Assembly: GCA_039191105.1 (NCBI GenBank)
Contig: JBCCXW010000001.1
Span: 23,353 to 87,352 of the forward strand
From: Pseudomonadota bacterium
Lineage (GTDB): Bacteria > Pseudomonadota > Alphaproteobacteria > Caulobacterales > Hyphomonadaceae
Length of the DNA stretch: 64,000 nucleotides
Reading direction: 5' to 3'
The notes under the pieces are model-generated. The model was not told the origin of the DNA, ran no database searches, and was given only the letters and a program-made list of their open reading frames with translations. A program made the position numbers and the translations under genes. Shown in pieces: positions 20,739 through 63,230 of this stretch; position 1 is the first letter of the stretch, and each line of letters starts with the position of its first letter.

Positions 20739-21070
20739 TCCTCTACAATTTCACACGGGCGATAAACCGAACGGTTCAAGTCGCTGTTGCGATCGGCATC
20801 GGCATGTTGGTTGTGGGGCCTGCCCACGCTGCTGGCTCCGGCATGCCTTGGGAAGGGCCGCTTGATCAGATCCTGCAATCTATCGAAGGGCCGGTTGCCC
20901 GGATCGTTGCCGTCATCATCATTACCCTGACGGGGTTGACGCTCGCCTTTGGTGAGACGTCAGGCGGCATGCGCAAGCTGATCCAGATCGTGTTTGGCCT
21001 CTCGATCGCTTTTGCGGCCACCAGCTTCTTTCTTACCTTCTTCTCGTTCGGCGGCGGAGCGCTCGTCTAA
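20735..21070 (+). CDS. trbC: Pilin TrbC/VirB2
   Basis: AHAAGSGMPWEGPL..I..SI.GPVA. Confidence 0.92.
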   Translation: MILYNFTRAINRTVQVAVAIGIGMLVVGPAHAAGSGMPWEGPLDQILQSIEGPVARIVAVIIITLTGLTLAFGETSGGMRKLIQIVFGLSIAFAATSFFLTFFSFGGGALV

Positions 21071-21324
21071 TGGCCGAGGGCTATGAAATCCCCCTCCATC
21101 GCTCGCTTACCGAGCCGATCCTGATGGCGGGCGCCCCGCGCAGCGCCGCCATCGCCATCGGGACGCTCGCTGCAGCGCTCGCCCTTGGCCTTCGGCTCTG
21201 GATACCCGGCCTTCTCTTATGGGTGATCGGCCATTCAGCCGCCGTGTTCATGGCGCGAAGCGATCCGGATTTCATGGCGGTCGCCGCTCGATCAACCCGG
21301 CACAAGGAACATCTCTCATGCTGA
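21070..21324 (+). CDS. trbD: TrbD/VirB3
   Basis: PLHRSLTEPILMAGAPR; ARSDPDF. Confidence 0.9.
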   Translation: MAEGYEIPLHRSLTEPILMAGAPRSAAIAIGTLAAALALGLRLWIPGLLLWVIGHSAAVFMARSDPDFMAVAARSTRHKEHLSC

Positions 21325-23783: not shown

Positions 23784-23793
23784 GAGCCAATCG

Positions 23794-24504
23794 GTGAAAC
23801 GCATGATCATGTCCGTAGTCCTATCGTGTTTGCCGCTGACGCTGATCTCCACACAGCCAGCGGCCGCGCAGTTCGGCTTTGGCGGGGTCGTCTATGACCC
23901 CGCCAATCACGCCCAGAATATTCTGACAGCGGTCCGGACGCTCCAACAGATCAATCAACAGATCCAGCAACTCACCCATGAAATCGAAATGCTCGAAAAC
24001 ATGGCGCGGGATCTGGAGAACCTGCCGGACAGTATTGCCGATGATATTTTACGCCGTATGCATCGCATCGATGAATTGATGCGGGAAGCCGAAGGCATCG
24101 GCTACGGCATCGAAGAAATCGAACGCGAATATGAGGTGATCTATCCAGAGGATTATGGCGCCGAGCCGCCAAGCCAGGCCGTCCTCGTCGAAGAAGCCCG
24201 CGCGCGGTGGCGTCAGTCCCGCTCAGCCTATCGCGAAAGTCTCCTGGTCACCGCAGAAGTGGTTTCAACGGCGCGCGCCGACAGTGAAAATCTCGACCGC
24301 TTGATCGGTGACAGCCAATCGGCTGCAGGAAATCTACAAGTCCTTCAAGCCGGAAATCAGATCGAGGCGCTGCAGACGCAGCAGCTCATGCAGATCGAGT
24401 CCATGATGGCCTCGCACTATCGCGCAGAAGCCTTGGAACGCGCCAGAGAGCTTGCTGAAGCCGAGCGTGGCCGCGCGCGCACCCGAAGCTTTCTCGGGAA
24501 CTAA
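23794..24504 (+). CDS. trbJ: TrbJ
   Basis: GVVYDPANHAQNILTAVRTLQQINQQI; AAGNLQVLQAGNQ; AGGAG RBS before GTG 23794. Confidence 0.9.
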   Translation: MKRMIMSVVLSCLPLTLISTQPAAAQFGFGGVVYDPANHAQNILTAVRTLQQINQQIQQLTHEIEMLENMARDLENLPDSIADDILRRMHRIDELMREAEGIGYGIEEIEREYEVIYPEDYGAEPPSQAVLVEEARARWRQSRSAYRESLLVTAEVVSTARADSENLDRLIGDSQSAAGNLQVLQAGNQIEALQTQQLMQIESMMASHYRAEALERARELAEAERGRARTRSFLGN

Positions 24505-24510
24505 TGCGCC

Positions 24511-25818
24511 ATGGATGTGATCGACACCTTTCTTGCGACCTTTATCGCTTACATTGACTCAGGTTTCGGCCTGCTGGCGGGCGATGTCGCTTATCTGTCG
24601 ACCACGCTGATCGCTATCGACATCACCCTGGCGGGCCTCTTCTGGGCGCTGTCTCAGAACACGGATGTAATTGCAGGCCTCCTAAAGAAAGTCCTTTATG
24701 TTGGCTTCTTCGCCTTCATCATTGGTAATTTCTCGCTCCTCGCAAACATCGTCTTCGACAGCTTTGCCGAACTTGGCGTAACCGCGGGCGGCGGGACCAT
24801 GACTGCCGCTGACCTTCTGCGGCCCGGATTCATCGCCAGCGTTGGTTTCGATGCTGCGCAGCCTTTGCTTGCCGAGATCAGCGACATGCTCGGCCCAATC
24901 TCATTTTTTCACAACTTCATCATGATCGCGGTGATGTTCATCGCTTGGGCCATCATCATGATCGCCTTCTTCATCCTGGCGGTGCAGCTCTTCATCACCA
25001 TCCTTGAGTTTAAGCTGACGACACTGGCTGGGTTCATTCTGGTGCCCTTCGCGCTCTGGAACAAAACGACTTTTCTGGCAGAGCGTGTCCTCGGCAATGT
25101 CATCACCTCGGGCATCAAACTGATGGTGCTCGCGGTGATCATCGGCATTGGCTCGACGCTGTTTGCATCGGTCACGGATGCGTTCCGTACCGGAACTGAT
25201 GTGACACTGGCGCAGGTCATGGGCACGGTCCTCGCAGCGATCGTCTTTTTCTGGATGGGGATCTTCGCGCCGGGTGTCGCCTCAGGTCTGATCACTGGCG
25301 CGCCGCAACTTGGCGCCGGGTCCGCCGCCGGCGCTGCCGCCGGTGTCGCGGCGGGAACTTATGTCGCTGGGATGGGCGGGCGGGCTGCTGTCGGTGCAGC
25401 GGCAGGCGGCGCATCAAGCGCTGTCAAAGCTGGCGCAAGCATGGCGGGCGCAGCCCGCACCTCGTACAAACTTGGCTCTGTTGCGTCGGGCGCGACAGGG
25501 GCTGGTGCTGTAGCCGCCGGTATTGCGGGCATGGCACGCGCAGGCGGTGACGCCATTCGCAGAACCGCAAGCCGTCCCGCCCAATCCCTCCAAGATGCTT
25601 ACCGACGTGGCAGCCAGGGCGCCTGGCGCGCCACCGGTGGTTCGGGCGGAAGCGACCTCTCCACACCATCCTCTGCAAGCGGGGGCCCCGGATGGGCGCG
25701 CCGCTTTCGAACCGAACAACGCATGGGTCAAGCCAGCCAGATGGCGGCCCATTCCTTACGCGATGGCGATGCAGGCTCTTCCGGCGCTGCGCCCCAACTC
25801 AATGACAAGGACGAGTAG
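24511..25818 (+). CDS. trbL: TrbL/VirB6
   Basis: IDSGFGLL; LEFKLTTLAGFILVPFALW; Gly/Ala-rich C-terminus. Confidence 0.93.
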   Translation: MDVIDTFLATFIAYIDSGFGLLAGDVAYLSTTLIAIDITLAGLFWALSQNTDVIAGLLKKVLYVGFFAFIIGNFSLLANIVFDSFAELGVTAGGGTMTAADLLRPGFIASVGFDAAQPLLAEISDMLGPISFFHNFIMIAVMFIAWAIIMIAFFILAVQLFITILEFKLTTLAGFILVPFALWNKTTFLAERVLGNVITSGIKLMVLAVIIGIGSTLFASVTDAFRTGTDVTLAQVMGTVLAAIVFFWMGIFAPGVASGLITGAPQLGAGSAAGAAAGVAAGTYVAGMGGRAAVGAAAGGASSAVKAGASMAGAARTSYKLGSVASGATGAGAVAAGIAGMARAGGDAIRRTASRPAQSLQDAYRRGSQGAWRATGGSGGSDLSTPSSASGGPGWARRFRTEQRMGQASQMAAHSLRDGDAGSSGAAPQLNDKDE

Positions 25819-26508
25819 ATGTTCAAACGATCTTCCACTTCCTATGGGCCAAGCCCGTTTCCTGAAACGCCCTACCAGAAGGCAGGTCAGATCTGGGATG
25901 AGCGTATCGGGTCGGCCCGCGTGCAGGCAAAGAACTGGCGGTTAATGGCGCTTGGCTGCCTCGGGCTTTGCTTTGTCACCTCCGGCGCGCTGGTGTGGCG
26001 GTCAATGCAATCGACCGTCACGCCCTATTTGGTCGAAGTCGATGAAACTGGCGCCGCTCGCGCCGTCGGACCTGCAACGGAACGCTACACGCCAAGCGAC
26101 GCGCAGATCGCCCATCACCTCGCAGGCTTCATAGAGAATGTGCGTGGATTATCCGTAGACCCGGTTGTGGTGCGCGAGAGTTGGCTGCGCGCCTACGACT
26201 TTGTCACCGACCGCGCATCAACAACCCTTAACGAATACGCCCAGGAGAGCGACCCTTTCGCCGATGTGGGTCGCAAGTCCCGCACCGTCGATGTGGTCAG
26301 CGTCGTGCGCGTTTCCGATGACAGTTTTCAGGCGCGCTGGATCGAGAAGGCCTATGAGAACGGCGCGTTGATCGGCGCGCAGCGCTTCACCGGCAATTTC
26401 ACCCTCATCACCCAGCCACCAACGGATGCGGAGACCCTCCGCGCCAACCCCCTTGGCCTTTATGTCCATTCCCTCAACTGGGGACAGGACCTCGTTACAG
26501 GAGAATGA
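25819..26508 (+). CDS. trbF: TrbF/VirB8
   Basis: TPYQKAGQIWDERIGSARVQAKNWR; NPLGLYV. Confidence 0.93.
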   Translation: MFKRSSTSYGPSPFPETPYQKAGQIWDERIGSARVQAKNWRLMALGCLGLCFVTSGALVWRSMQSTVTPYLVEVDETGAARAVGPATERYTPSDAQIAHHLAGFIENVRGLSVDPVVVRESWLRAYDFVTDRASTTLNEYAQESDPFADVGRKSRTVDVVSVVRVSDDSFQARWIEKAYENGALIGAQRFTGNFTLITQPPTDAETLRANPLGLYVHSLNWGQDLVTGE

Positions 26509-27506
26509 TCCCCATGCCGCGTTTTTTGATTTCCGCTTCCGCTTTGATGCTCATATCAGCCTGCGCAACGACGACTGAATTCGAACCGATTGATCCGGGT
26601 GCATTTGTAGCGGCCACCGCCGTCAACGACGATTATGACCTGCCGATTGAGATCGTTGAGACGGCCGTTGCGCTGCCCCTGCCGGGACAGATGAAAGCGA
26701 TTGAGTCGGCGCCGCCAGCGCCGCGCCTGTCACCAACACAGGCGATCAGGGAAGGCAGAGAGGGTGCGCTCATTGAGCCTTCGGTCGATGGCTATGTGAA
26801 CGCGATCCAGATTTATCCCTATACCGAAGGGGCGCTTTATCGACTGTATGCGAGCCCTGGCCAGGTTTCCGACATTGCGCTCCAACCAGGCGAAGAACTC
26901 GTTTCTGTTTCCGCGGGCGACACGGTGCGCTGGGTTGTCGGCGACACGAGTTCCGGATCCGGCGCAACGTCGCGCGCCCATGTTCTGGTCAAACCGATCA
27001 GTTCAGGCATCCGCACCAATCTGATGATCGCGACCAATCGGCGAACCTATCACCTGGAACTGGAAAGCGTATCCGGCGGCTATATGGCGGCCCTCTCATG
27101 GCGTTATCCAGCTGATGAACTCGCTGGGCTCACGGCGAGGAATGATCGCGCCATCGCTCGCGAAACCGGGTCTATCGAGCGTGGACTGACCCTTGAAGGT
27201 CTCAATTTCGACTATCGGATGAGCGGTGACAATCCTGCATGGAAGCCAGTCCGCGTCTTTGATGACGGGCGTCAGGTGTTCATCCAGATGCCAGACTCGA
27301 TCATCGCGACTGATCTACCGCCGCTCTTCGTCGTCGGCGACGATGGCGATGCCGAGCTCGTCAACTATCGCATCCGCGGCAATTATTATGTCGTCGACAG
27401 ACTGTTCCGAGCCGCCGAGCTTCGCCTTGGTGAACGGAATCAAACAGTCGTGCGGATCACACGCGTCCAACGCCGCACGGGCCTTGCAGCGATATTCGGG
27501 AGTTGA
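26505..27506 (+). CDS. trbG: TrbG/VirB9
   Basis: YPYTEGALYRLYASPGQVSDIALQPGE; VRVFDDGRQVFI. Confidence 0.93.
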   Translation: MIPMPRFLISASALMLISACATTTEFEPIDPGAFVAATAVNDDYDLPIEIVETAVALPLPGQMKAIESAPPAPRLSPTQAIREGREGALIEPSVDGYVNAIQIYPYTEGALYRLYASPGQVSDIALQPGEELVSVSAGDTVRWVVGDTSSGSGATSRAHVLVKPISSGIRTNLMIATNRRTYHLELESVSGGYMAALSWRYPADELAGLTARNDRAIARETGSIERGLTLEGLNFDYRMSGDNPAWKPVRVFDDGRQVFIQMPDSIIATDLPPLFVVGDDGDAELVNYRIRGNYYVVDRLFRAAELRLGERNQTVVRITRVQRRTGLAAIFGS

Positions 27507-27513
27507 TCGGCAG

Positions 27514-28767
27514 ATGACTGAACCGATTCCCTTCGACGAACATGCAGAGCGTTTGAAAATCCGCTCCAATCCGAAACCCGTCACACGGATCAATCGAAAG
27601 GTGTTGATGGTGGGCGCAGGTCTTGGTGTCTTAGGTCTCTTTGCGGCCATGAGCATCGCTTTGAAACCGCCCACAGCCGTCGCTCCGAATGAGCGCCGTG
27701 AACTCTACAACGTAACGAACAAGCGGACCCCCGATGGCCTTTCCACATTGCCAGCAAGCTACAGCGATGTTCGGCCTGATCCCATACCTGTACTCGGACC
27801 ACCGCTCGCGGGCGATCTGGGGGCCACAGTTCTACGGGCAGAGCGCGATCTCGGTATTGAGCCGGAATATGTACGCACCTTCGAAGATGACTTCAGGCCC
27901 AACCCGGTCGATGAAGCCGAACGCGCCCGGCGCATGCGTGAAGCTGCCCTCCAGGAAGAAGCCGCCCGTGCGCCTGTCTTTTTTCAGCTTCAATCGCAAA
28001 CAGGCAGCGAACGTGCAGCAGGCGCGACACCGACCTATCGCGACCCTGCACTCGATCTCGGGTCAGAACTTCTCGCACTCGCCTCGCTGCCGCCGGGCAC
28101 GCCGTCGGCTTTCGGGCAGGCAACTGACCCCAATCTTCAGTCGCGAAAGCTGGCTTTTGCAGGCGAAGGCGGGGGGGCGGATATCTACAATCCACACCAG
28201 ATCGAAGATCCTGCCTCGCCCTATCAGGTCATGGCGGGAACACTGATCCCGGCAAGCCTCGTCACTGGCATCAATAGTGATTTACCCGGAACGATTATCG
28301 CGCAAGTGACGCAGACCGTGTACGATACGGTCTCCGGGCGGTACGTTCTGATCCCGCAAGGCTCGCGTCTGATCGGGCGCTATCAGTCGGAAGTTTCCTT
28401 CGGTCAGGACCGAACGCTCGTGACTTGGGACCGGGTCATTTTTCCCGATGGGTCTTCTATTCAGATTTCGGCTCCCGGCGCTGATGCGCACGGCTATTCG
28501 GGTCTCTCTGATCGCACCGATCATCATTGGGATCGCGTCTTCGTGGCAGCAGGTCTTGCGACCATCTTAGGGATCGGCGCCGAACTTGGCAGTGATGGCG
28601 ACGGCGATATCGAACGCGCGATCAGGCGCGGCACGTCCGACACCGTGAATCAGGCCGGCCAACGCGTCGTCGATCGATACTTAGGCATTCAGCCGACCAT
28701 CCGTGTGCGTCCCGGCTGGCCGGTCCGCGTCATTGTCACCCGCGACCTTATTCTTCGTCCCCATTGA
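27514..28767 (+). CDS. trbI: TrbI/VirB10
   Basis: AGTLIPASLVTGINSDLPG; LIPQGSRLIG; PTIRVRPG. Confidence 0.93.
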   Translation: MTEPIPFDEHAERLKIRSNPKPVTRINRKVLMVGAGLGVLGLFAAMSIALKPPTAVAPNERRELYNVTNKRTPDGLSTLPASYSDVRPDPIPVLGPPLAGDLGATVLRAERDLGIEPEYVRTFEDDFRPNPVDEAERARRMREAALQEEAARAPVFFQLQSQTGSERAAGATPTYRDPALDLGSELLALASLPPGTPSAFGQATDPNLQSRKLAFAGEGGGADIYNPHQIEDPASPYQVMAGTLIPASLVTGINSDLPGTIIAQVTQTVYDTVSGRYVLIPQGSRLIGRYQSEVSFGQDRTLVTWDRVIFPDGSSIQISAPGADAHGYSGLSDRTDHHWDRVFVAAGLATILGIGAELGSDGDGDIERAIRRGTSDTVNQAGQRVVDRYLGIQPTIRVRPGWPVRVIVTRDLILRPH

Positions 28768-28780
28768 ACAGGAAACCGCC

Positions 28781-29017
28781 ATGTCCCTTCGTCTCCAAAA
28801 ACTCCCCGATCGAACCCCGGTGCGCATGAACCTAGCCGTCGATCCTGACCTTGCAGCAGCGCTTGCCGATTATGCTGAAATCTATCGTCAAACCTACGGA
28901 GCAGACGAAAAGCCGGAAGCACTGATCCCGGCCATGCTGGAGAGTTTTCTCAGGCAAGACGCCGGGTTCAAACGGGCGCGCAAAGCCCTTCACGCCAACG
29001 CCAGACAAGGAGAATGA
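28781..29017 (+). CDS. DUF2274-family protein
   Basis: LRLQKLPDRTPVR...LADYAEIY...LIPAMLESFL..D.GF; typical after trbI. Confidence 0.85.
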   Translation: MSLRLQKLPDRTPVRMNLAVDPDLAAALADYAEIYRQTYGADEKPEALIPAMLESFLRQDAGFKRARKALHANARQGE

Positions 29018-29322
29018 CCATGGCGACCATCGGTACATTTACAGAGAAGGACGGCGCCTACACCGGAACGATCCGTACCATGACGATAAACATCAAGGCT
29101 CAGCTCGTTCCAAACGACCACAAAGCGAGTGACGGTGCACCTGACTTTCGCCTCTATGCTGGAGGCGCCGAACTTGGTGCCGCCTGGCGGCAGGAAAGCA
29201 AAGATGGTGAGAAGCCATATCTTGCGGTGAAGCTGGACGATCCTAGCTTTGCCGGGCCTGTCCGAGCGGCGTTCTTTGAGAACGAGGCTGAAGGGACCGG
29301 CGTGATAGTCTGGAAGCGATGA
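29014..29322 (+). CDS. DUF736-family protein (second copy)
   Basis: MATIGTFT...YTGTIRT; APDFRLY; ELGAAW; YLAVKLDDPSF. Confidence 0.88.
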   Translation: MTMATIGTFTEKDGAYTGTIRTMTINIKAQLVPNDHKASDGAPDFRLYAGGAELGAAWRQESKDGEKPYLAVKLDDPSFAGPVRAAFFENEAEGTGVIVWKR

Positions 29323-49546: not shown

Positions 49547-49646
49547 TCGTGCCCCAAGTCACGCCTCAAAACGTGCCTCAATTTCTAGAAGGACTCATCT
49601 AAGTAATTGTTTTTATTATGTTATTATTGCGTTATCGAGCGCATCG
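49547..49646 (+). repeat. att-like direct repeat, copy B
   Basis: Matches 40959-41058; its last 5 bp (CATCG) run into a tRNA-Gly-like 3' end. Confidence 0.85.
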
Positions 49647-50796
49647 CCCGCTCCAATGAATTCAATGACTTAGCAGAATGCCCAGAAGAAGACTGGCCAC
49701 GAATTGGCCACGACATGAGCGGCCGTTCGCTTGGCGGGATGAGCAATTCTCGAAGAAAATTATCAATGGCGACAACGGCTTGCGCCAGATAAGATGGGTC
49801 GAACGGGGCGTAAATCTCGGTAATCGACATTTCCCGCTTCTTATGACCCAGTTGGGCGGCTACTTCCCAGGCCGGGACGCCGGAAGCCCGTAAATGCCGC
49901 GCCATGGTGTGGCGCATGGAATAGGGCTGAACTTGGTCGTCGAACCCGCAGATTTTGCGTTGGTTTCGCCAAGCGGTTTTGATCTCCATCACCGGCTTAT
50001 CGCGAAAGCTGACTTGGAAGCCTTCTTTCACATGGTCTTTCAAAACCGGCGGGAGCTTCACGGTCGGACGATGCTTTTTCGTCTGAGTGCGCCCAATAGG
50101 GTTCAGCTCGATCAATTCCCGTTCAACATCGATCCGTCCCGAATGGAGATCTAGCACCGCTTGCGGTCGGGCGGCCGTTCCTAACGCCCAGAGGATGAAA
50201 GCCTTCAAATGATCTGACGGGGCGGTGTGATAAAAAAGCCGAAGCTCCTCCATCTCCATCGGCCGCCCCATGGGGCCGGCGGCCTCCACGGGCAGAGATT
50301 TGATGAAGGGCGCGGTAGTGAGGATGCCTTGCTTCCAGGCCCGATTGATCGCGGCCCGTCCGGTCATAAGGATGCGGTTGATATAGGCGTTGCTCCGGTC
50401 GCCTTTGCTGCGCAGATCCGCAATGAATTTATCGATCTGCTGCGGCCGCGCGGCGTCTTCCACTGTCGTTTCGGGCGGAAAGAATTCCAGCCAAAAGGTG
50501 AGGTTCAGCCTTGCGGATTCATGGCTGGCGATGTGCTGTCCGTGCTCTTCGTAATAAATCCGGATGACGTCCGAGAGGAGAACGGAGCCCGGCGCGCCTT
50601 CCTCGGGCGTCTTGTTCAGAACGATCCATTCGCTCAGTCGGACTTTGGCTTCTTCAAAGTCTGATGTGCCAAGCGATGCGCGTCGTGTGGATTTCGATCC
50701 TGTATCGTACCAGAACCGATACCAGACGGGGGAGCCTTTCCTTTGGGCGAGCCAGTATTCGCCGATCTTGAAGGCGGGCTCTGAGGTTCCTCCCAT
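49624..50796 (-). CDS. int: Tyrosine recombinase/integrase
   Basis: TAARP (R), TKK (K), SMRHTMAR (HxxR), LGH, IY (catalytic Tyr); tail reads through the att site. Confidence 0.92.
   Translation of the reverse strand: MGGTSEPAFKIGEYWLAQRKGSPVWYRFWYDTGSKSTRRASLGTSDFEEAKVRLSEWIVLNKTPEEGAPGSVLLSDVIRIYYEEHGQHIASHESARLNLTFWLEFFPPETTVEDAARPQQIDKFIADLRSKGDRSNAYINRILMTGRAAINRAWKQGILTTAPFIKSLPVEAAGPMGRPMEMEELRLFYHTAPSDHLKAFILWALGTAARPQAVLDLHSGRIDVERELIELNPIGRTQTKKHRPTVKLPPVLKDHVKEGFQVSFRDKPVMEIKTAWRNQRKICGFDDQVQPYSMRHTMARHLRASGVPAWEVAAQLGHKKREMSITEIYAPFDPSYLAQAVVAIDNFLRELLIPPSERPLMSWPIRGQSSSGHSAKSLNSLERAMRSITQ
49642..49655 (+). other. tRNA-Gly 3'-end fragment at the IME left junction (not a complete tRNA)
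   Basis: CATCGCCCGCTCCA; no upstream cloverleaf; followed by TGAATTCAATGACTTAG and GGCCAC repeats (arm-site-like). Confidence 0.6.
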
Positions 50797-51041
50797 GTCA
50801 TGCTCCCCAATAGATAATCGACGATGTTAAAGCCGAAATAGGCGATGCTTCGACGACCAATGCGCAGAAATTGAATCCTGCCCGCCAGACGCGTTTGTTT
50901 CAATGTTTGCGGGTGAATTCCGATGATCTCAGCGGCTTGCGCCTCAGAATATCGCTTGAAGAGATCAACGCCATTCGCCTCAGCGATGCGTGCGGACAAG
51001 TCGAGGCGCGCTTCAGGCGTCTGATCTGTCTCTTCACTCAT
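50634..51041 (-). CDS. Excisionase-like HTH protein overlapping int
   Basis: YSEAQAAEIIGIHPQTLKQTRLAGRIQFLRIGRRSIAY; 163-nt overlap with int in another frame. Confidence 0.7.
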   Translation of the reverse strand: MSEETDQTPEARLDLSARIAEANGVDLFKRYSEAQAAEIIGIHPQTLKQTRLAGRIQFLRIGRRSIAYFGFNIVDYLLGSMTWEEPQSPPSRSANTGSPKGKAPPSGIGSGTIQDRNPHDAHRLAHQTLKKPKSD

Positions 51042-51127
51042 TGCTGTCTTTTGCCAGGTCTGCGCATAAATGTTAGCTACGCCATTGAGCAAAGCCCGGC
51101 AAACCTGCCGCAGATTTGGACCGATTT

Positions 51128-51571
51128 ATGAGCGAAGCGCCGCCCATTCTTCTTGATCGCATGACCGGACAGAGCGGCGACAATGAAGAATTGGAGGTCG
51201 GCCTCTCATTCGAACAGCGCTTTAATCAATATGTTGGTGCTGAAAACAGCCTATTGATGGCCGAAGCGGCTGCCGCTCGAGGCTATTCGGAAACCGACGC
51301 AGACGGCGAGCGGACAAACGTCGAAGACGCCATCCGCATTTTAGAGGCGAGCGCGCGCTATCGAGCCGCTGAAATCACGGCTCAAGAGCTGAGCGACGCC
51401 AAGGCGGAAGGCAAGTATGACGACGCCGAATTGGCGATGCTCGAAGCGCGCCATAACGAACAAAAGCAAGCCAAAGACGGTCCCGATTATCTCCAGCTTT
51501 ATCGGGACCAATCGACGGCGTCCGAACGCTCGAAAGAAGCCGACAAAGATATCGATATTGCGGACGATTAA
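51128..51571 (+). CDS. Acidic hypothetical protein with relaxase-like C-terminal tail
   Basis: Ends GPDYLQLYRDQS...DKDIDIADD; shares TTAA with the convergent relaxase stop. Confidence 0.65.
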   Translation: MSEAPPILLDRMTGQSGDNEELEVGLSFEQRFNQYVGAENSLLMAEAAAARGYSETDADGERTNVEDAIRILEASARYRAAEITAQELSDAKAEGKYDDAELAMLEARHNEQKQAKDGPDYLQLYRDQSTASERSKEADKDIDIADD

Positions 51572-52998
51572 TCGTCGTCGGAGATGTCCTGGTCCTTCGT
51601 ATTGTCCTTATCCTGTTCGTCCGAGCGCCCTTTAGCGGCGTCGCTCAACGAGCTTTGGCGGTACAGGTCTAGATAATCGGACGGTCCGGCGTTCGGATTG
51701 TCAGCTCTCTTCGTGAACTCTGATCGCGCCTCTCTCGAGGCTTGGGCGTTTGAAAGCTGAGCATAGGCCGTATCGCGCTCCTGATTACGGGCAGACCAAG
51801 CTCGGCTGTTGGCGCGGCGCTCGACCTCTTGGCGCTTCGTCAAATCGATCCGCGCCGTTTCAAACGCTGTTCTGTTTTCCGCAAGTTTCGCGGCCGCTTG
51901 CTCTTTGAGCTTGGCGCGTGCGTCCGCCATTTTCTGTCGATGGACCCGCCGCAAGGCTTCCCGCTCCTGGGCTTGCGACGCATGAAACGCCTCTTCGCGT
52001 TTTCCGGCATTGCCGAGAATGCCGAAGGTTCTTTTGAGCAGGCCTGAGCGTTCCGACCGAAGCGCTTCGGCCGAGATTCTCAAGGTGCGGGCGATGTTGG
52101 AGGTGCGCCCAAACAGCGATGTTTCGAGCGCGTCGAAGGTGTGCTGTTCGGCGGCTTGGCGGCGAATGAGGGCGATAAACTCAGGCCGCATGTCTTCGAG
52201 GATCGCCGCCTCAGCCTGGGCGACATCCTTTTTGAGCTGCGCGCCGATATTCGCTCGGGCGCGGCGATGACCCGCCTCCAGCTTATCCCAGGCGCCTTGA
52301 TGCTGCTTGACCATGTTCCGCGTGCGCAGCGATAGGGCGTGGTCCTTGGCGCGCTGTGCGGCGATTTCGTCGCCTTGGTCGGAATTGTCATTCGCGACCC
52401 CATCCTGCTGCGCTTCAAAGATATGGCGCGCGACGTTCTTTTCGCCGCGCACATATTGGCCGGCGTCGCGCATGGCGTTGTTGAGTACGCGATTGTCGCA
52501 ATAGATCACAGTCTCCTCTTCATAGGCCTGCGCCCATTTCGAGAGGTTCAGCTTTTCCTTGGAGCTGGACAGCATGCGTCCGTCCTGGGGCGAGACGCGA
52601 TTGATCAAGAGGTGAAGATGCGGATGGTCTTCGTCATTGTGGCAGACCATCAGCGTTTGGCGGTCTTCCGCGCCGAGCGCTTCAAGCGCCCCTTCGCCGG
52701 CGGCGATCATCTCATCCTTGGAAGGATCCTGTTCGGGGTGCCAGGACAGGGTGAGGTGAAGCACGGCTTGGTTGGATTTCCGTCCGCTTGATCGAACGCC
52801 GGCACGGGATTTCAAACGGTCCTGATCCATGGCCGTGGCGATCATGACTTTCCAAGCCAAATGCGGATCGTCGCTCGTCAGATTGCGCGTGTCCGTCCAG
52901 GCGACGCGTTCCGACGATGCAAGCGTGTCCTTGTCATGCAGCAGATATTGCGCGGCCCCTTTGAAGCTGGAGCCTTTGGCGTGCAGCTTAGGGATCAT
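51568..52998 (-). CDS. MOB_P-type relaxase
   Basis: SFKGAAQYLLHDK (Tyr), HLTLSWHP, HNDEDHPHLHLLINRV. Confidence 0.92.
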   Translation of the reverse strand: MIPKLHAKGSSFKGAAQYLLHDKDTLASSERVAWTDTRNLTSDDPHLAWKVMIATAMDQDRLKSRAGVRSSGRKSNQAVLHLTLSWHPEQDPSKDEMIAAGEGALEALGAEDRQTLMVCHNDEDHPHLHLLINRVSPQDGRMLSSSKEKLNLSKWAQAYEEETVIYCDNRVLNNAMRDAGQYVRGEKNVARHIFEAQQDGVANDNSDQGDEIAAQRAKDHALSLRTRNMVKQHQGAWDKLEAGHRRARANIGAQLKKDVAQAEAAILEDMRPEFIALIRRQAAEQHTFDALETSLFGRTSNIARTLRISAEALRSERSGLLKRTFGILGNAGKREEAFHASQAQEREALRRVHRQKMADARAKLKEQAAAKLAENRTAFETARIDLTKRQEVERRANSRAWSARNQERDTAYAQLSNAQASREARSEFTKRADNPNAGPSDYLDLYRQSSLSDAAKGRSDEQDKDNTKDQDISDDD

Positions 52999-53326
52999 GG
53001 TGCGCCGCCACTTTGGCCAGAAGCGTGTTCAGCTCGACGCCGATTTCCCGCCAATATTCTTGGAAGGCGCTGTCGCGATGAACCGATCTTGCCAGCTGGT
53101 TCACATTGACGCCGATGCGGTTGAGCTCCGACACAAGAGCGGCGTTCGCCGACAACTGCGCCTTGGCGACGACTTCATAGCCGAGGGCGCGGCGACGCAG
53201 ATATTCGGATGGTTTAATCCCCGCCATTTCGGCCTGGGTGCGAATATACTCCTGCTCAGCCACAGTCGCCCGAAACTGCATCGGGGTGGATCGCTTTTCG
53301 TGCTGCTCCTTTCGCGGCCGCGCCAT
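52988..53326 (-). CDS. mobC: MobC relaxosome accessory protein
   Basis: PSEYLRRRALG; ELNRIGVNVNQLAR; AAGGAG RBS; overlaps the relaxase start. Confidence 0.88.
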   Translation of the reverse strand: MARPRKEQHEKRSTPMQFRATVAEQEYIRTQAEMAGIKPSEYLRRRALGYEVVAKAQLSANAALVSELNRIGVNVNQLARSVHRDSAFQEYWREIGVELNTLLAKVAAHHDP

Positions 53327-53567
53327 CAGCTGCTCCTTTTCATCGTCCGGGGATGCTCCCGGTCGCCGTGCAGGGGGCGAACCCCTTGCGAGCTGGTTTT
53401 TAGGGGTAGCGATAGACCTTTGAAGCCATGAGTTTGGTCCGGTGAGAGATGGCGATCTTTCAATTCCGGTCCATGGTTCGGCGTCGGTGGAGAGGGATGT
53501 CTCCAAGCCCGACGAGTAGGTCTTGAAAGGGTGGCGAAACACCCTTCACCAGATGCGCGATAGCGTC

Positions 53568-58793: not shown

Positions 58794-61376
58794 ATGGCGC
58801 AGCGTTATGTTGCAAACACCAATGCGGACATTGTCGATGAGCCGCTAATTGGAACCGCCACCTGGCTGACGCCGCATCAGGTGGCGGAGCAATACCCCTA
58901 TGAGAACGGCGCGGTCTGGCTGGGCCGCAACGTAGACGACGAGCAAAGCCGCGTCGGCCGAGCCGACGATTCCCATGTCCTTTTGTGCGCAAAGACGCGC
59001 GCCGCCAAGGGCCGCTCGATCATCATTCCCAATCTCATCACCTGGCCGGGATCGCTCTTTTGCTATGACCCCAAGGGCGAGAACGCCTCGATCACCGCAC
59101 TCATGCGCGGCAATCCAAGCGATGGTCCTTCAGTCCAGGTCAACAAGCATCAAGGCCAGAACGTCGTCGTGCTGGACGCGCACCGAACCGCGTCCGTGCC
59201 TGATGCGCTGCGCGGTTATTTCAATCCGCTTGCCGAACTAGAGCCCAATGATCCGGCCACGCCGTCGCGGGTCGCCATTATCGCTGAATCCTGCGTCGCA
59301 AAGGAAAGCCGCACGGATACGACTTGGGATGAGAAGGCGGAGACCTTCATCAAGATATTGGCCTTACATATTTCCAGCTCGAAATTCGTGCCGGGCGATC
59401 AACGCGATCTGATCACGCTTCGGCGTTTTATCGTCGCCGGCGACGTCATCGCTCTGGAACACGTACGGGCGCATCTCTCCCCGGAGGAGCTTGAGGCTAA
59501 GCCTCCAGATCCCTTCGAAATGCTGATCTTGGCGATGCGTCAGAACACAGCCTATGGGAACATTATCGCCGACCAGGCTGAGAGCTATCTGGGCTCGTTG
59601 AAATCGCAGCCCAAGCTTTGGAACTCCATCCGAACATCGGCCGAGCAGCACACGGCTTGGATCGATGATCCGCAGCTTCGCGCCTGTTTGCGGTTGTCCG
59701 AGGACGGGCCGCAGCGGACGTTCCGCGCGGGTGACCTACAAAGCGCCCCTGAAGGGTTGAGCGTCTTTCTTTGCTTGCCGTCGTCGCAAAAAGAACCCCT
59801 AGCGGCGTGGCCGCGCATGGTCACCAATTTGATCCTCTCCGCAGCCCAGGAGCGCGGACACAAAGAGCCCGCAACTGGCTTTCAGACGCTGATGATGCTG
59901 GACGAGTTCGCGTCCCTCAAACGCATGCCGAAGATTGAAAGTGCGGCCGCCGACATCGCCGGCGCGGGCGTGAAATTGTTCTTCGTCGTCCAATCCTTGG
60001 TGCAGTTGAAGAATGTCTATGGAGAGGGCTGGGAGGCCTTTCTCTCATCGGCAGACACCCATGTGTATTATGGCTTCAACGACAATTTCACCGCCGAGTA
60101 TGTGTCGAAGCGGTTAGGTGAGATCGAGGTCATCCGAAAAATGCGCTCCGGCTCGAGCGCACAATCGCAAACCCGATCCGTGGCCGATCAAACCGGCGGA
60201 TCTAAGGGACAGACCCTGTCTTCGACGGAGGGGGTCTCTTCGAGCCTATCCGCGGCGCGCGGCGGCGGACGCGCCTCGACCTGGGGGTCGGTCTCCGGCC
60301 TAAATTCGACCACCGGCTGGGGGCCGTCTTTGGTGTTCCGTACTTTGGAGCGCAGCCACCAAGAGGGGCGGTCGTTTTCAAGAAGTAGAGGCGGGTCGCG
60401 GCAGAAGAATTGGACCAAGACCAAACAATCCGGGCGTTCCTCAACGAGCGGCAGTAGCACGTCGTACAGTGAAACCTGGTCGAGAACGTTGACCGAATCT
60501 GAAGCCAGCACCAACACCGACGGGTGGAGCGAGCAGCTGCACCGGAAACCTCTGGCCACGGTCAACGAGCTGATGACACTCTTCGCGTCGATCGATGATG
60601 CCGACAATCCGATTCATCCGGGGATTGCGCTTGTGTCTCCCGCGTCTGGGATCCCGTTTGTAGTTCACAAGGCATTTTATGATCGCGACTACGCCTTCAG
60701 GGGTACGTTCGAAGCCCACCCCAAACATGGCTTTCTGGCGCTCCCGCCGCCGCCCAAACGATATGGCCCAGAGCATTTCCAAACGCTCGCTCTCAAGCTC
60801 GAAGAAGGCGCGGTTCAGGTAAAGCTTCGCGACGGCTTAGCACCTGGAGATCTGATCCAAAAAGGACAGGATTTTCTGAGTGTTGTTGTCGGCGATGATG
60901 AACTCGATCAGTTCAAAGCGCCGTGCGATGCGCTGATCAGCTATAATTTTCCCCATTATCTACGAGCGCGTCTCGACGACGAGGTTATTGCGTTCGACGA
61001 CTATGAGGATTGCGCCCAATTTCAGGCCGAACACCCTGAAGCGGTCATGGAAAATGAAACACGGATTGTCGAGTTGAGGCTTGAAGAACCGGTTTCAAAA
61101 GAAGCGTGGAAAAAAATGATCTTGCCGCTGTTGGAATCCGCAATACTTGGTCAAGATATCTGGCGCGCCAATCGTGAATTGGGAAAGGCCGTTGTGGATG
61201 AAGAGTTGTCGGCTGGCTACTTCCATAACAAATGGCCGAACCCGGCTCTGTTCCGAAAAAATGAGCAGACGCGAGACCTTGAAAGACTTGAGGAGGTGAG
61301 ATTCCGACTTGATCAAGCTCGGAATACGCGGCGCGCTTTGGGCTATGACCACGTCAGAGCGGGCCGCAACGACTAG
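58794..61376 (+). CDS. VirD4/TraG-like coupling protein, atypical
   Basis: AKTRAAKGRSIIIPNL, YDPKGEN, MMLDEFASL, VVQSLVQL..YG, DNFTAEYVSKRLG. Confidence 0.85.
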   Translation: MAQRYVANTNADIVDEPLIGTATWLTPHQVAEQYPYENGAVWLGRNVDDEQSRVGRADDSHVLLCAKTRAAKGRSIIIPNLITWPGSLFCYDPKGENASITALMRGNPSDGPSVQVNKHQGQNVVVLDAHRTASVPDALRGYFNPLAELEPNDPATPSRVAIIAESCVAKESRTDTTWDEKAETFIKILALHISSSKFVPGDQRDLITLRRFIVAGDVIALEHVRAHLSPEELEAKPPDPFEMLILAMRQNTAYGNIIADQAESYLGSLKSQPKLWNSIRTSAEQHTAWIDDPQLRACLRLSEDGPQRTFRAGDLQSAPEGLSVFLCLPSSQKEPLAAWPRMVTNLILSAAQERGHKEPATGFQTLMMLDEFASLKRMPKIESAAADIAGAGVKLFFVVQSLVQLKNVYGEGWEAFLSSADTHVYYGFNDNFTAEYVSKRLGEIEVIRKMRSGSSAQSQTRSVADQTGGSKGQTLSSTEGVSSSLSAARGGGRASTWGSVSGLNSTTGWGPSLVFRTLERSHQEGRSFSRSRGGSRQKNWTKTKQSGRSSTSGSSTSYSETWSRTLTESEASTNTDGWSEQLHRKPLATVNELMTLFASIDDADNPIHPGIALVSPASGIPFVVHKAFYDRDYAFRGTFEAHPKHGFLALPPPPKRYGPEHFQTLALKLEEGAVQVKLRDGLAPGDLIQKGQDFLSVVVGDDELDQFKAPCDALISYNFPHYLRARLDDEVIAFDDYEDCAQFQAEHPEAVMENETRIVELRLEEPVSKEAWKKMILPLLESAILGQDIWRANRELGKAVVDEELSAGYFHNKWPNPALFRKNEQTRDLERLEEVRFRLDQARNTRRALGYDHVRAGRND

Positions 61377-62200
61377 AAATCATCATCCAGAATAGAGGCC
61401 GCCTTATCGATCCGCCTTTGAGTCTCGGCAGGGACGTCCGGTGCCACCTCAGGCCGGCCGGACTCGGGAGGCGGTGTTTTCACAATTGGGGGATCTGGGA
61501 GTTCGACTTTGGGTGGGCTGTTTTCTGCTGGTGTGGCGTTTTCGCGTGGCTCCGGAAAAAAGAAATAGTCTAGAGCTCCTTCGTCGCGGACCTTCGTTTT
61601 GATGTAGTCGAGCCAATAATTCGAAAGCTGCTTGGTTTTCGTTCCCTTCGGGCGATAACCTAAGATGATTTGAAGATTGATCCCGTAAAACGCACCATTT
61701 TCATACTCTCTTGCGCCCCACCCCGCCACGAGACCGGCGACCGGCATTGATAGAATCCTTGCTTCATTTTCAAACTCTAGCCGCAACGCCGGTTCATCAG
61801 AATCCAGGAAGTAAACGCCTTTTCCAAGCTGACGCGTATCCTTCAAGATCGCTTTTCCCTGGAGATCCGGGAAGGTCATATCGAAAGTCACATGGACAAC
61901 CATCTTTTCCTTCGCGAAGGTAACGTTCGCCGTATCGCGCTCGAACGCATCCTTCGGCCAGATTTCCAGCAAGAGGTATAGGTCATCAGACCAGTCACGA
62001 AGGGCTGGTTGTTTGGGAGTGCCGAATTCAAGTACAACGCCTTCGATTGGCGAGCGAATCGTCTTCTCGTCTCCGTTCTCAAGTATAGTTGCGATGGGAT
62101 CGCCGGCACTGACATAGCACCCCGCCTCGCTATGGTATTCCTTAGCGAGGATTCCGCCGCTACGGCTGTACTTGAATTGCCGGATTTTAAGCTCGATCAT
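61373..62200 (-). CDS. Hypothetical protein with two biotinyl/lipoyl-like segments and a Pro-rich tail
   Basis: YVSAGDPIATI...IRSPIEGVV and YFLDSDEPALRL...LSMPVAGLV; 4-nt overlap with the VirD4-like stop. Confidence 0.55.
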   Translation of the reverse strand: MIELKIRQFKYSRSGGILAKEYHSEAGCYVSAGDPIATILENGDEKTIRSPIEGVVLEFGTPKQPALRDWSDDLYLLLEIWPKDAFERDTANVTFAKEKMVVHVTFDMTFPDLQGKAILKDTRQLGKGVYFLDSDEPALRLEFENEARILSMPVAGLVAGWGAREYENGAFYGINLQIILGYRPKGTKTKQLSNYWLDYIKTKVRDEGALDYFFFPEPRENATPAENSPPKVELPDPPIVKTPPPESGRPEVAPDVPAETQRRIDKAASILDDDF

Positions 62201-62212
62201 CCGCGCGATGGC

Positions 62213-62650
62213 CTATATCGACTGCTGAAGATCGTCGCCGCGATCTTGCTCGTTTGCGGCTTCTTTGTCCTCGGCATTGTCGCGATAGCTTTGGAGCAGC
62301 GCCTGGTAATCGTCGGCGTTGGCCTGCTCGTCTTTCCACTTTTCGTCAAAGCCTTGGCGCTGCACCTCTTTGGTGCCTTCCAACTCGTAGGAAGGCGTGA
62401 GCTCGGCGCTAGCTGAATCGTCTTTGACCATTTGCGAGCCTCGACCCTTGGTCTCAGCTTCAGGCTCCTCCAGCTCGAGGTGTACGTAGGCGCGATGCGC
62501 TTCAGAGAAGGCTTTTTGAACGCCGGGATGCTCGTCGAGCACGGAGTCCTGGTCCGCCTCCAGCTTCACATTCCGCCCATAAGAGGTCGCCATGTCGCGC
62601 TCCAAACTCCGCTCTCCGCGCAGCCTAAGCGTGAAGTCTGAGAGAGTCAC
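62213..62650 (-). CDS. Acidic hypothetical protein with mobilization-protein-like tail
   Basis: RGSQMV.D...L.PS...R..F..KW..EQ; DDYQALLQSYRD plus acidic end; start uncertain. Confidence 0.55.
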   Translation of the reverse strand: MTLSDFTLRLRGERSLERDMATSYGRNVKLEADQDSVLDEHPGVQKAFSEAHRAYVHLELEEPEAETKGRGSQMVKDDSASAELTPSYELEGTKEVQRQGFDEKWKDEQANADDYQALLQSYRDNAEDKEAANEQDRGDDLQQSI

Positions 62651-62726: not shown

Positions 62727-63230
62727 TTGAAAGATACGAAAACCTCTTTTGATGAGGGTCGCTATCCTTTCACTTACATTCTGAACATACCCGCCGGCGG
62801 GCGAATAAAGGCCGCCGAGGTGAAGGAGACTTTGTCAGATATCGTAAGCTCCGAAGGGATCGATGCGCTCATCCTCTCACAATACACGCAAAACTCAGGA
62901 GGCGGCGTAACGGCCATCGGACTGGGCTTCACCCAAGAGGCCCATTATGGGCGCGTCATGGACCGGCTGGACGATGCGATCTATCGGCGAAACAAAGACC
63001 TCATCCATTGGGATGCGGACGCCGGCCAGCACTATCTGGGCCTTTATCGGGGACAAATCATGCGCGACGACGCGACGTCGCGTAGCGATCGCCGCGCATG
63101 GGGACGCGCGATCGAGCGGACGATCGAGCAGTGCGATGCGAAGCGCTTCCAAGCGCTTGCGGAATTGGAACGAGAGCGCTGCAGCGATGCTGCTCCGGAA
63201 GGGCTTCCAAGGCCCGGTGATTTGTCATAA
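62727..63230 (+). CDS. Hypothetical protein
   Basis: 167-aa ORF, TTG start, divergent from 62650; no family recognised. Confidence 0.45.
   Translation: MKDTKTSFDEGRYPFTYILNIPAGGRIKAAEVKETLSDIVSSEGIDALILSQYTQNSGGGVTAIGLGFTQEAHYGRVMDRLDDAIYRRNKDLIHWDADAGQHYLGLYRGQIMRDDATSRSDRRAWGRAIERTIEQCDAKRFQALAELERERCSDAAPEGLPRPGDLS

Follow-up and report, generated by a model that had tools for sequence, protein, structure and literature searches.

The relaxase of a putative mobilizable element and the small protein encoded convergently with it (hereafter family A) end in similar C-terminal tails, and across related elements the two tails change in concert. The reading that best fits these sequences, to which we give a probability of about one half, is that the tail is a tag common to both proteins and read by the element's coupling protein. 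All coordinates below refer to the window, the whole 64,000-nucleotide stretch of DNA that was analysed (Table 1).

Table 1. Features of the putative mobilizable element and the neighbouring secretion system, with positions in the window.
Feature	Position	Strand	Basis
Trb-type (P-type) T4SS of neighbouring ICE	19743-29322	+	TrbB, TrbC, TrbE, TrbL, VirB8, CagX and TrbI families
Tyrosine integrase, left end of the element	49624-50796	-	PF00589, 9e-11
HTH_17 (excisionase/AlpA-like) ORF, divergent from family A gene	50634-51092	-	weak PF12728 match
Family A small acidic protein, 147 aa, net charge -19	51128-51571	+	helical body plus C-terminal tail
Family A tail, GPDYLQLYRDQSTASERSKEADKDIDIADD	51479-51568	+	z 6.3 against own relaxase tail
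Palindrome GACGATTAATCGTC	51563-51576		two Asp-Asp-stop ends with TTAA in common
MobA/VirD2-type relaxase, 476 aa	51568-52998	-	PF03432, 2.9e-24
Relaxase tail, GPSDYLDLYRQSSLSDAAKGRSDEQDKDNTKDQDISDDD	51571-51687	-	aligns with family-wide relaxase tail module
NikA/MobC relaxosome accessory protein	52988-53542	-	PF21983, 3.6e-19; PF05713, 5.6e-7
VirD4/TraG-like coupling protein, 860 aa	58794-61376	+	PF02534, 8e-43; PF12696
Ser/Thr/Gly-rich insert of coupling protein	60201-60600 (approximate limits)	+	40-aa charge window; similar inserts in homologues
Family B small acidic protein, tail DDYQALLQSYRDNAEDKEAANEQDRGDDLQQSI	62213-62650	-	homologues convergent on coupling protein

From its gene content, the region is predicted to be an integrative mobilizable element (IME) that lacks a mating channel of its own. 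The backbone consists of an integrase, an HTH protein, family A, a PF03432 relaxase, NikA/MobC, the element's own VirD4-like coupling protein and a second small acidic protein, family B. As expected of an IME, it encodes an integrase and a relaxase, here with NikA and a coupling protein, and no T4SS-like gene lies from 51 kb to the end of the contig; a search for T4SS genes in the 19 kb that follow the window on its right found none. The only mating channel on the contig is the Trb system of the neighbouring ICE, which may act as helper for the present element. IMEs with a relaxase and a coupling protein and without a T4SS are known (PMC5704250), and the present element resembles those covered there in having an integrase, a relaxase with its accessory protein and its own coupling protein while mating-pair genes are absent. 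It differs from them in that families A and B and the common tail match no annotated family (Pfam, NCBIfam). The integrase is 50-62% identical to the integrases that adjoin each family A gene of the related loci, where the HTH_17 ORF is also kept throughout, at 39-59% identity. The relaxase N-terminal domain scores 86 bits against PF03432 (cut-off 24.6) and contains the histidine-cluster sequence HNDEDHPHLHLLINRVS, which is invariant in the alignment. The protein also partially matches the NCBIfam TraI/MobA(P) model, and 406 homologues were found.

The preliminary description of this DNA proposed that the relaxase and a convergent small protein have homologous acidic tails, and this is borne out. 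The two genes lie tail-to-tail with their stop codons overlapping in TTAA, and in both proteins GP(S)DYLxLYR precedes a terminal Asp-rich run, the common segment making up the last 30-40 residues of each. When the two proteins are compared by BLASTP, only the tails align (20/38 identical, E 5e-4), and the family A tail exceeds composition-preserving shuffles in its match to the relaxase tail with a z of 6.3. The last 15 residues carry a net charge of -4 in family A and of -5 in the relaxase, where they contain no Arg; the last 20 residues include 5 Asp and 2 Glu in the former, and 8 Asp and 1 Glu in the latter. That two charged, low-complexity ends merely resemble each other by chance is hardly credible. 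Of 6,139 long ORFs, 43 do end in a charged tail, defined as 9 or more charged residues among the final 15, and the family A tail matches the relaxase tail with an E of 0.71 at whole-genome database size. Against this, that match is the best non-self hit when all 55,562 ORFs from the six frames of the genome are searched, it runs end to end, and it falls on the adjacent gene. The six-frame ORFs, 4.97 million residues in all, contain YLxLYR just five times, three of them in this element, and the pattern recurs in other elements. Chance is contradicted by the comparative statistics across elements, given next.

Ten pairs of family A protein and relaxase were compared, with relaxases that share 30-60% identity in most cases. 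Adding up the scores of the cognate pairs gave a total that 7 of 2,000,000 random pairings reached, and in a nine-pair version 13 of all 362,880. Family A tails scored 63 (window), 62 (L097) and 58 (L114) against their own relaxase, and at most 33, 43 and 32, respectively, against any other family A tail. Shuffle z values at other loci were 7.0 (L097), 6.6 (L114), 4.3 (L127), 3.6 (L116) and 2.8 (L100); the remaining four pairs (L096, L098, L099 and L121) show nothing sequence-specific beyond composition or a five-residue end. Charge follows the pairing too, with net values over the last 15 residues of -4/-5, -3/-2, -3/-5, +4/+4, +2/0 and -2/-2 within pairs. Tails of relatives can be mixed (EQDN..DRDDD.ER) or Arg-rich (RSRKR), examples of the latter being RSRKR in L098 and L118 and RGRARTRTRKR in P0139, and segments shared within other pairs include YDALVDLFE/LDALVDKFE and DSYYSDLEERL/DEYFKDLERRV. 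The tails are conserved in homologues, and across ten elements they co-vary with the cognate relaxase. A family-wide relaxase tail module can be written as LxRYxRxxEFxKA..EQDNxRDRDDDxER. From 50 relaxase tails a profile of 42 positions was made; it detected relaxases alone and left the window relaxase and family A tails unscored, with the family B gene at 8.3 bits and about rank 17 of 55,562 ORFs; as a generic detector it was rejected, the family-wide consensus being too weak.

Convergent genes invite a neutral explanation: the two 3' ends would have undergone inverted duplication or gene conversion time and again, leaving tails whose likeness has no function. As a rule the genes meet at their 3' ends with an overlap of 4 nt, a 22-nt inverted repeat of 77% complementarity spans the tail motif, and between L114 and L116, whose relaxase bodies are 82% identical, both 3' halves have been exchanged together as one cassette. 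We nevertheless consider this origin highly unlikely. In the window, 12 of the 17 identical residues are encoded by different codons, as are 10 of 17 in L097, and nucleotide identity of the tails is 49-53% (53% in the window); synonymous positions are essentially randomised, yet 50-57% of residues are identical. Codon usage thus excludes a recent inverted duplication or gene conversion. Tail differences between the window and its relative L001 are synonymous except for a D-to-E change in family A and S452G and S473A in the relaxase. Matching pairs also persist where the genes are 1-6.5 kb apart (6.5 kb in L097), and in L127 another gene intervenes. Finally, had one ancient duplication been followed by unconstrained drift, cognate scores should show no excess, whereas an excess is seen. 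The likeness is accordingly more than a local inverted duplication, and no refuting outcome named in the preliminary description that computation can address was observed.

The palindrome GACGATTAATCGTC, pointed out earlier at the junction of the two genes, does exist, and it arises because both genes end in Asp-Asp-stop with a common TTAA. No sign of a function accompanies it, and it reads as a coding by-product: in L001 it is shortened to GAAGATTAATCGTC, the region folds no better than shuffled sequences (z -0.57), and a search for a terminator-like site found none. We therefore rejected it as a terminator or structured element.

Coupling-protein homologues accompany the relaxase in 30 loci, and over these loci the charge of the relaxase tail correlates with the length of the cognate coupling protein (Spearman -0.75, p 1.6e-6, uncorrected for phylogeny). 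This charge-length correlation suggests a link between the tails and the element's own VirD4-like protein. The coupling protein of the window has a long C-terminal extension and lacks the N-terminal membrane segment, its maximum hydropathy over the first 200 aa being 0.81, compared with 2.38 for the TraG of the ICE. Its insert contains Lys/Arg and is poor in Asp/Glu, the 40-aa window of maximum net charge (+8) being WGPSLVFRTLERSHQEGRSFSRSRGGSRQKNWTKTKQSGR, and several long coupling-protein homologues carry a similar basic, Ser/Thr-rich insert. The insert is a candidate reader of acidic tails. The earlier proposal of an acidic DY-x-x-L-Y-R signal read by the element's own VirD4-like protein is partly supported, in that a link with that protein is suggested; as a general form of the signal it does not hold, DY-x-x-L-Y-R being the variant of a single lineage.

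Taken together, we propose that the tail is a bipartite signal of 30-45 residues, in which an aromatic/hydrophobic helix motif (DYLxLYR) would precede a charged, probably disordered run that is Asp-rich here. Selection would keep both tails alike by way of a single partner that reads both, most likely the element's coupling protein. This protein would dock the relaxase-DNA complex, and family A too, onto a T4SS that is not the element's own, for instance the neighbouring Trb system, and family A would reach the recipient, or at least the channel, along with the DNA. That the window's coupling protein lacks a membrane anchor counts against this role. More tentatively, the convergent 3' ends may form an exchangeable address cassette whose swapping, as between L114 and L116, would re-address both proteins at once to another coupling protein; the Asp-rich aromatic form may represent a new class of type IVA signal, read by the basic insert of a long, anchorless VirD4-like protein; and family A may be a passenger that acts in the recipient, for example by protecting or establishing the element. 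This fuller picture is possible and, to our mind, clearly less probable than the tag itself.

The same co-variation and charge data would also suit docking without export, in which family A stays in the donor, its tail fills the site that the relaxase uses on the coupling protein or the relaxosome, and the protein serves as an adaptor, timer or competitive brake. The family A gene is divergent from the integrase/excisionase pair, a place typical of regulators. We regard such mimicry as rather unlikely: no DNA-binding or regulatory domain was detected in family A, and a brake would not obviously be retained as a backbone gene in most of these elements, although sequence analysis is unable to separate this alternative from export. 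Less probable again is self-association of the aromatic helix motif, through which family A would bind the relaxase tail as a chaperone or assembly factor, or join relaxase oligomers. The best-conserved part of the common segment is indeed a short amphipathic stretch, modelled by AF2 as a helix with low confidence. The like-charged terminal runs (acidic with acidic, RSRKR with RSRKR) would, on the other hand, repel each other, hetero-association does not need identical sequences, and the correlation with the coupling protein would stay unexplained. A tag read by the coupling protein thus remains our preferred reading.

The family A gene is genuine and under purifying selection. Its likeliest start is the ATG at 51128, which gives 147 aa, because a TTG upstream reads TGG in L001. 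Compared with this 97%-identical relative, family A has 22 synonymous and 9 non-synonymous codon changes and a dN/dS of 0.096. The family is rare and unannotated (27 clusters among 1.84 billion representative proteins), and its body is conserved across the 27 clusters as a helical region of about 100 aa with the pattern DRMTGRS..LS..ER..F..AE...SA.YHA..I...EL; the window protein matches the body HMM with an E of 1.7e-32. Family A usually lies between integrase and relaxase in one type of IME, and an integrase is its neighbour in every inspected locus carrying one. The AF2 model has a pLDDT of 68-89 over the body (residues 21-110) and at most 60 in the tail, where a low-confidence helix is drawn over the aromatic motif. 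Searches of family A against Pfam, NCBIfam and PDB sequence profiles, and with Foldseek against the PDB, gave no match; in a plasmid collection family A was unmatched and the relaxase gave distant matches only. Several family A genes (L087, L124 and L113) have no relaxase of the present PF03432 family within 4-10 kb, and some adjoin another relaxase type. One of these, the TraA-type relaxase of L125, was considered as a tail partner and set aside, its tail resemblance being just weak.

A third gene, now family B, had been described as a weaker match. Its likeness to the family A tail in the window stands (score 56, z 5.0, p 0.0005); its tail does not resemble that of the relaxase significantly (z 1.6), nor does it track it, as 6,169 of 40,320 permutations reached the cognate score of family B and relaxase tails in eight elements, which is not significant. 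Co-variation of all three tails was therefore dropped. In L096, L100 and L123, BLAST identifies family B homologues that converge on the coupling-protein gene, and genes in the same arrangement in L127 and in Phycisphaerales loci were assigned by position and tail resemblance.

The choice of substrates by coupling proteins is still poorly defined in conjugative type IVA systems; few signals have been described there, most of them carry positive charge, and they are difficult to recognise in a sequence. To our knowledge, an acidic, Asp-rich signal is undescribed for any type IVA conjugative system. The Agrobacterium VirB/D4 system reportedly uses an Arg-rich C-terminal signal, found by Vergunst et al. 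in 2005 on VirD2, VirE2, VirE3, VirF and VirD5. The putative signal described here is likewise a short and probably unstructured extreme C-terminus on a relaxase and on proteins that would be transported with it, and family A proteins and relaxases of relatives have Arg-rich variants (RGRARTRTRKR, RSRKR). The Agrobacterium signal is of the R-x7-R-x-R-x-R type; the window tails, in contrast, have charges of -4 and -5, with positive charge in relatives only, and their charged run is preceded by an aromatic helix motif. The Agrobacterium transport signal is summarised in PMC3937733 and PMC6509941, and the Arg-rich tails of relatives resemble the positively charged C-terminal type reviewed in the latter.

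Another well-known signal, a BID domain plus charged tail, is carried by alphaproteobacterial relaxases, toxins and Bartonella effectors, and relaxase-type signals of this kind have been copied onto proteins of the same element, such as VbhT and PezT/Zeta-BID (PMC6509941, PMC5675462). The signal is thought to be read by, and to co-evolve with, the coupling protein, and that of VbhT is nearly identical to those of TraA relaxases (PMC6509941, PMC5675462). As in BID systems, a candidate C-terminal signal is found here on the relaxase and on non-relaxase proteins of one element, with cognate matching over ten elements. Unlike the BID fold of about 100 aa, the shared part comprises 30-45 residues, and the Pfam search matched the relaxase to PF03432 alone and gave no hit for family A. 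The window tail is acidic and not positive, the relaxase is of the PF03432 and not the TraA type, and family A, unlike BID-carrying proteins, is a new family of 120-170 aa without a toxin or enzyme domain.

Acidic tags are known from the Legionella Dot/Icm system, in which basic patches of DotM read Glu-rich E-block tails (PMC5802825). The present tails are similar in being acidic and C-terminal, with a chemistry that co-varies with the putative receptor, and they would likewise be recognised electrostatically by a component of the coupling complex. The Legionella system differs in being type IVB (DotL/M/N) with Glu-rich tails, whereas the window has Asp-rich tails, a P-type conjugative T4SS and a VirD4-like protein. 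Co-transfer of plasmid proteins during conjugation has been described for PsiB, SSB and ParA/B of F-type plasmids (PMC8406263, PMC11288057). The present element would similarly send a private set of proteins through the channel with the relaxase-DNA complex; its defining feature, unlike in the F-type substrates, is the shared and co-varying tail. We know of no recognisable tail that the F-type substrates have in common with their relaxase.

These elements provide a natural co-variation series, in which the tails of two unrelated proteins per element shift jointly from acidic to basic. Since tail charge tracks the architecture of the coupling protein, they also offer paired positive controls and ready-made natural tail swaps. 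A testable role is thereby assigned to two unannotated backbone families of a widespread class of mobilizable elements from marine settings. Should the tags function in the proposed way, they could allow prediction of the proteins that travel with mobile DNA.

The 3′ ends of two convergent genes lie within positions 51470-51700 of the window, and their stop codons have a TTAA in common. In translation, the small plus-strand ORF ends in ...GPDYLQLYRDQSTASERSKEADKDIDIADD and the minus-strand relaxase in ...GPSDYLDLYRQSSLSDAAKGRSDEQDKDNTKDQDISDDD. The preliminary description held these ends to be similar, and BLASTP bears this out: the alignment of the two proteins is confined to their C-terminal ends (20/38 identical, E 5e-4), and a composition-preserving shuffle of the small tail gives z 6.3 against the relaxase tail. 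In a search of all the genome's 55,562 six-frame ORFs, the top non-self match of the small tail is the adjacent relaxase, aligned end-to-end, with a database-size E-value of only 0.71. The motif YLxLYR occurs five times in the 4.97 million residues of these ORFs, three times within this element. Third of the five is an internal HYLGLYRGQ in a 167-aa ORF, for which we found no family match and no homologue in related loci. The palindrome GACGATTAATCGTC is present as described, but it is a by-product of two Asp-Asp-stop ends sharing TTAA; a close relative has it in shortened form, and its region folds no better than shuffled sequence and is not terminator-like.

Table. Features discussed; locations are in the window unless another sequence is named.
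Feature	Location	Strand	Description
Separate ICE-type module			DUF3363 relaxase, TraG, complete Trb-type T4SS (19.7-29.3 kb)
Tyrosine integrase	49624-50796	-	Left of small gene
HTH_17 ORF	50634-51092	-	Left of small gene
Small gene (family A)	51128-51571	+	147 aa
Relaxase	51568-52998	-	476 aa; PF03432, MobA/VirD2-type; NikA/MobC accessory gene precedes
TIR-FGE gene, PP2C phosphatase, Ser/Thr kinase			Right side
Coupling protein	58794-61376	+	Right side; 860 aa, VirD4/TraG-like
ORF convergent on coupling protein	61373-62200	-	Right side; 275 aa
Third gene (P0003, family B)	62213-62650	-	Right side
167-aa ORF	62727-63230	+	Just right of third gene
Type I restriction-modification system	contig C1 89774-96135		Beyond right end of window; HsdR-, HsdM-, HsdS-like, from reading translations
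Second family A copy	contig C87 566-1051	-	Same genome
Integrase ORF beside second copy	contig C87 1189-2484		57% identical
Family A beside TraA-type relaxase	L125 7136-7519, 9836-12937		Also L126; 1,033-aa MobA_MobL/TraA-type relaxase, 550-aa coupling protein
Family A copy with in-frame TAG	G491:C5:155444-155830 (L121)
Coupling-protein homologues	L096 13809-16886; L100 1975-4680
Mosaic segment	L114 1780-2950		Compared with L116

With its own relaxase and coupling protein and no T4SS of its own, the locus is an integrative mobilizable element, and its channel must therefore be borrowed. Cargo and defence genes lie between it and the ICE-type module, and no T4SS occurs in the 19 kb of contig right of the window; the type I restriction system there may be part of this element's cargo. 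Although the HTH_17 ORF and the annotated 5′ end of the integrase share ~160 nt, this ORF is kept in all related loci; the integrase probably starts downstream of its longest-ORF start.

The small ORF is a genuine gene under purifying selection. In a Logan contig with the same gene arrangement and 97% nucleotide identity (L001), it differs by 22 synonymous and nine non-synonymous codon changes, giving a dN/dS of 0.096, near the relaxase's 0.071. Its start is placed at ATG 51128 because an upstream TTG reads TGG in L001. All tail changes are synonymous except for D-to-E on the small-protein side and, on the relaxase side, S452G and S473A. Neither Pfam nor NCBIfam has a match to the small protein, and a word-based search returned only one close relative. 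A locus fetched via the relaxase (L008) carries a convergent ORF whose stop overlap is 4 nt and whose body is homologous (E 5e-19 over 95 residues), and profile searching across 1.84 billion representative proteins yielded 27 clusters, here called family A, with a conserved body of ~100 residues and highly variable tails: acidic (DYADLYDQ...DKDIDIADDI), mixed (EEQSRDDDQER) or basic (RGRARTRTRKR). Family A is present in 16/262 genomes of the same bacterial family and in 6/401 sampled from the order, usually divergent from a same-clade integrase, with the relaxase next and often convergent. AlphaFold2 predicts for the strongly acidic window protein (net charge -19) a helical body (pLDDT 68-89 at residues 21-110) with a low-confidence tail; no resemblance was found among solved structures. 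A second copy in the same genome, ending in ...GKMGSARSKAERERE, lies on a 13.8-kb contig (C87) that lacks a PF03432-family relaxase, pointing to another element, of the kind paired with TraA-like relaxases. Family A also stands beside such a relaxase in L125 and L126, with only a weak likeness between the tails of the two proteins, GKMRDTLDKAPKERD and GRMLQPPRSRDRGRDLD.

We compared tails across ten non-redundant elements in which a family A gene occurs together with a relaxase of the same family as the window's. The paired ends, family A first, read QMKDSYYSDLEERL...DDGQER and QMTDEYFKDLERRV...DDGQERS in L097, where the genes are 6.5 kb apart; SRLSDEYRQEIARGEKSESIWSDEPVSEQ and SRLSDEYKREILGGKSLKEEFIWSDKKPAPEQ in L114; and SNYDALVDLFEK and SNLDALVDKFEQ in L127, where another gene intervenes. 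Both tails end in ...RSRKR in L098. The cognate score, summed over local alignments of the last 40 residues, was reached by 13 of 362,880 permutations of nine pairs and by seven of 2,000,000 random pairings of all ten. Composition-preserving shuffles gave z 6.3, 7.0, 6.6, 4.3, 3.6 and 2.8 for six pairs; for L096, L098, L099 and L121, nothing significant remained once composition or a short identical end was allowed for. The L121 family A copy, whose tail is unlike that of its own relaxase, may be decaying. In the three strongest pairs the family A tail is far nearer that of the cognate relaxase than that of any other family A protein, a pattern of concerted evolution. Net charge over the last 15 residues is likewise concordant between partners.

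A less probable reading is that the likeness is a neutral by-product. A local inverted duplication, named in the preliminary description as a possible source, does not suffice as sole cause: the two tails are ~50% identical at the DNA level, identical residues use different codons at 12/17 positions in the window and 10/17 in L097, and the sole DNA repeat is a 22-nt inverted segment over the motif with 77% complementarity. Had one old duplication been left to drift freely, there would be no cognate excess, and an excess is observed; recent gene conversion would leave synonymous identity, and the codons mostly differ. L114 and L116 form a mosaic, with flanks 80-90% identical and a central 1.2 kb over both genes' 3′ halves at 35-60%. 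Recombinational exchange has thus replaced both tails together, and the tails are also inherited and exchanged as one cassette, which accounts for their co-inheritance but not for their likeness within the cassette.

Exact DYLDLYR is kept only in the nearest of 120 relaxase homologues (60% identical), but the same position carries, family-wide, a conserved module in which a hydrophobic/aromatic motif, LxRYxRxxEFxKA, precedes a charged run, EQDNxRDRDDDxER. More distant homologues have Arg-rich ends, and family A tails cover the same acidic-to-basic range. The third gene, described as a weaker match, is a member of family B, another backbone family of small acidic proteins. Its tail does resemble that of family A in two loci, the window (z 5.0) and L127 (z 3.7), but not in L096 or L100; it is of a different kind, with its own conserved (D/E)RGDD motif and no tracking of the cognate relaxase (eight elements, p 0.15). 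In L096, L100 and L123, BLAST homologues of family B converge on the coupling protein, and in L096 the two stops overlap by 4 nt; same-position ORFs in L127 and Phycisphaerales loci were assigned either from position plus tail likeness or from a pairwise match (L021, E 2e-4). In the window this position is occupied by the 275-aa ORF, which ends in ...ILDDDF, overlaps the coupling-protein stop by 4 nt tail-to-tail and has no homologue in relatives, as though it had been inserted between the coupling-protein and family B genes.

Coupling-protein homologues accompany the relaxase in 30 loci. Over 30 non-redundant loci, uncorrected for phylogeny, net charge of the last 15 relaxase residues falls with coupling-protein length (Spearman -0.75, p 1.6e-6): tails are neutral to basic (0 to +9, mean +2.9) where the coupling protein is below 800 aa (327-780 aa) and neutral to acidic (mean -1.7) where it measures ~810 to 1,150 aa. 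Several long coupling proteins, including that of the window, have a Ser/Thr/Gly-rich insert with Lys and Arg, poor in Asp/Glu. This trend, a correlation only, and the insert would fit the coupling protein as receptor of the tails. The window coupling protein has no N-terminal membrane segment, and its homologues in L096 and L100 have hydrophobic, membrane-like helices at the C-terminal end; in this clade the anchor has apparently either shifted to the C-terminus or disappeared from it.

The best-supported reading of these sequences is that selection from a shared partner holds one tail on two unrelated element proteins. Substrates are usually marked by short C-terminal signals (PMC6509941), and toxins and effectors carry a BID-plus-tail signal copied from relaxases (PMC6509941, PMC5675462); DotM reads an acidic E-block (PMC5802825), and F-type plasmids co-transfer proteins (PMC8406263, PMC11288057). 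From the BID-plus-tail signal, the E-block and F-type co-transfer alike, the present case differs in signal size, charge, carrier family and its clear pairwise co-variation. Given that coupling proteins canonically take relaxases as substrates, that such short signals are usual, that some variants here are classical Arg-rich tails and that charge tracks coupling-protein architecture, the most likely mechanism, at a probability of roughly one half and ahead of a donor-side docking mimic, direct tail-to-tail pairing of the two proteins and a neutral by-product, would be a shared coupling-protein tag, export included.
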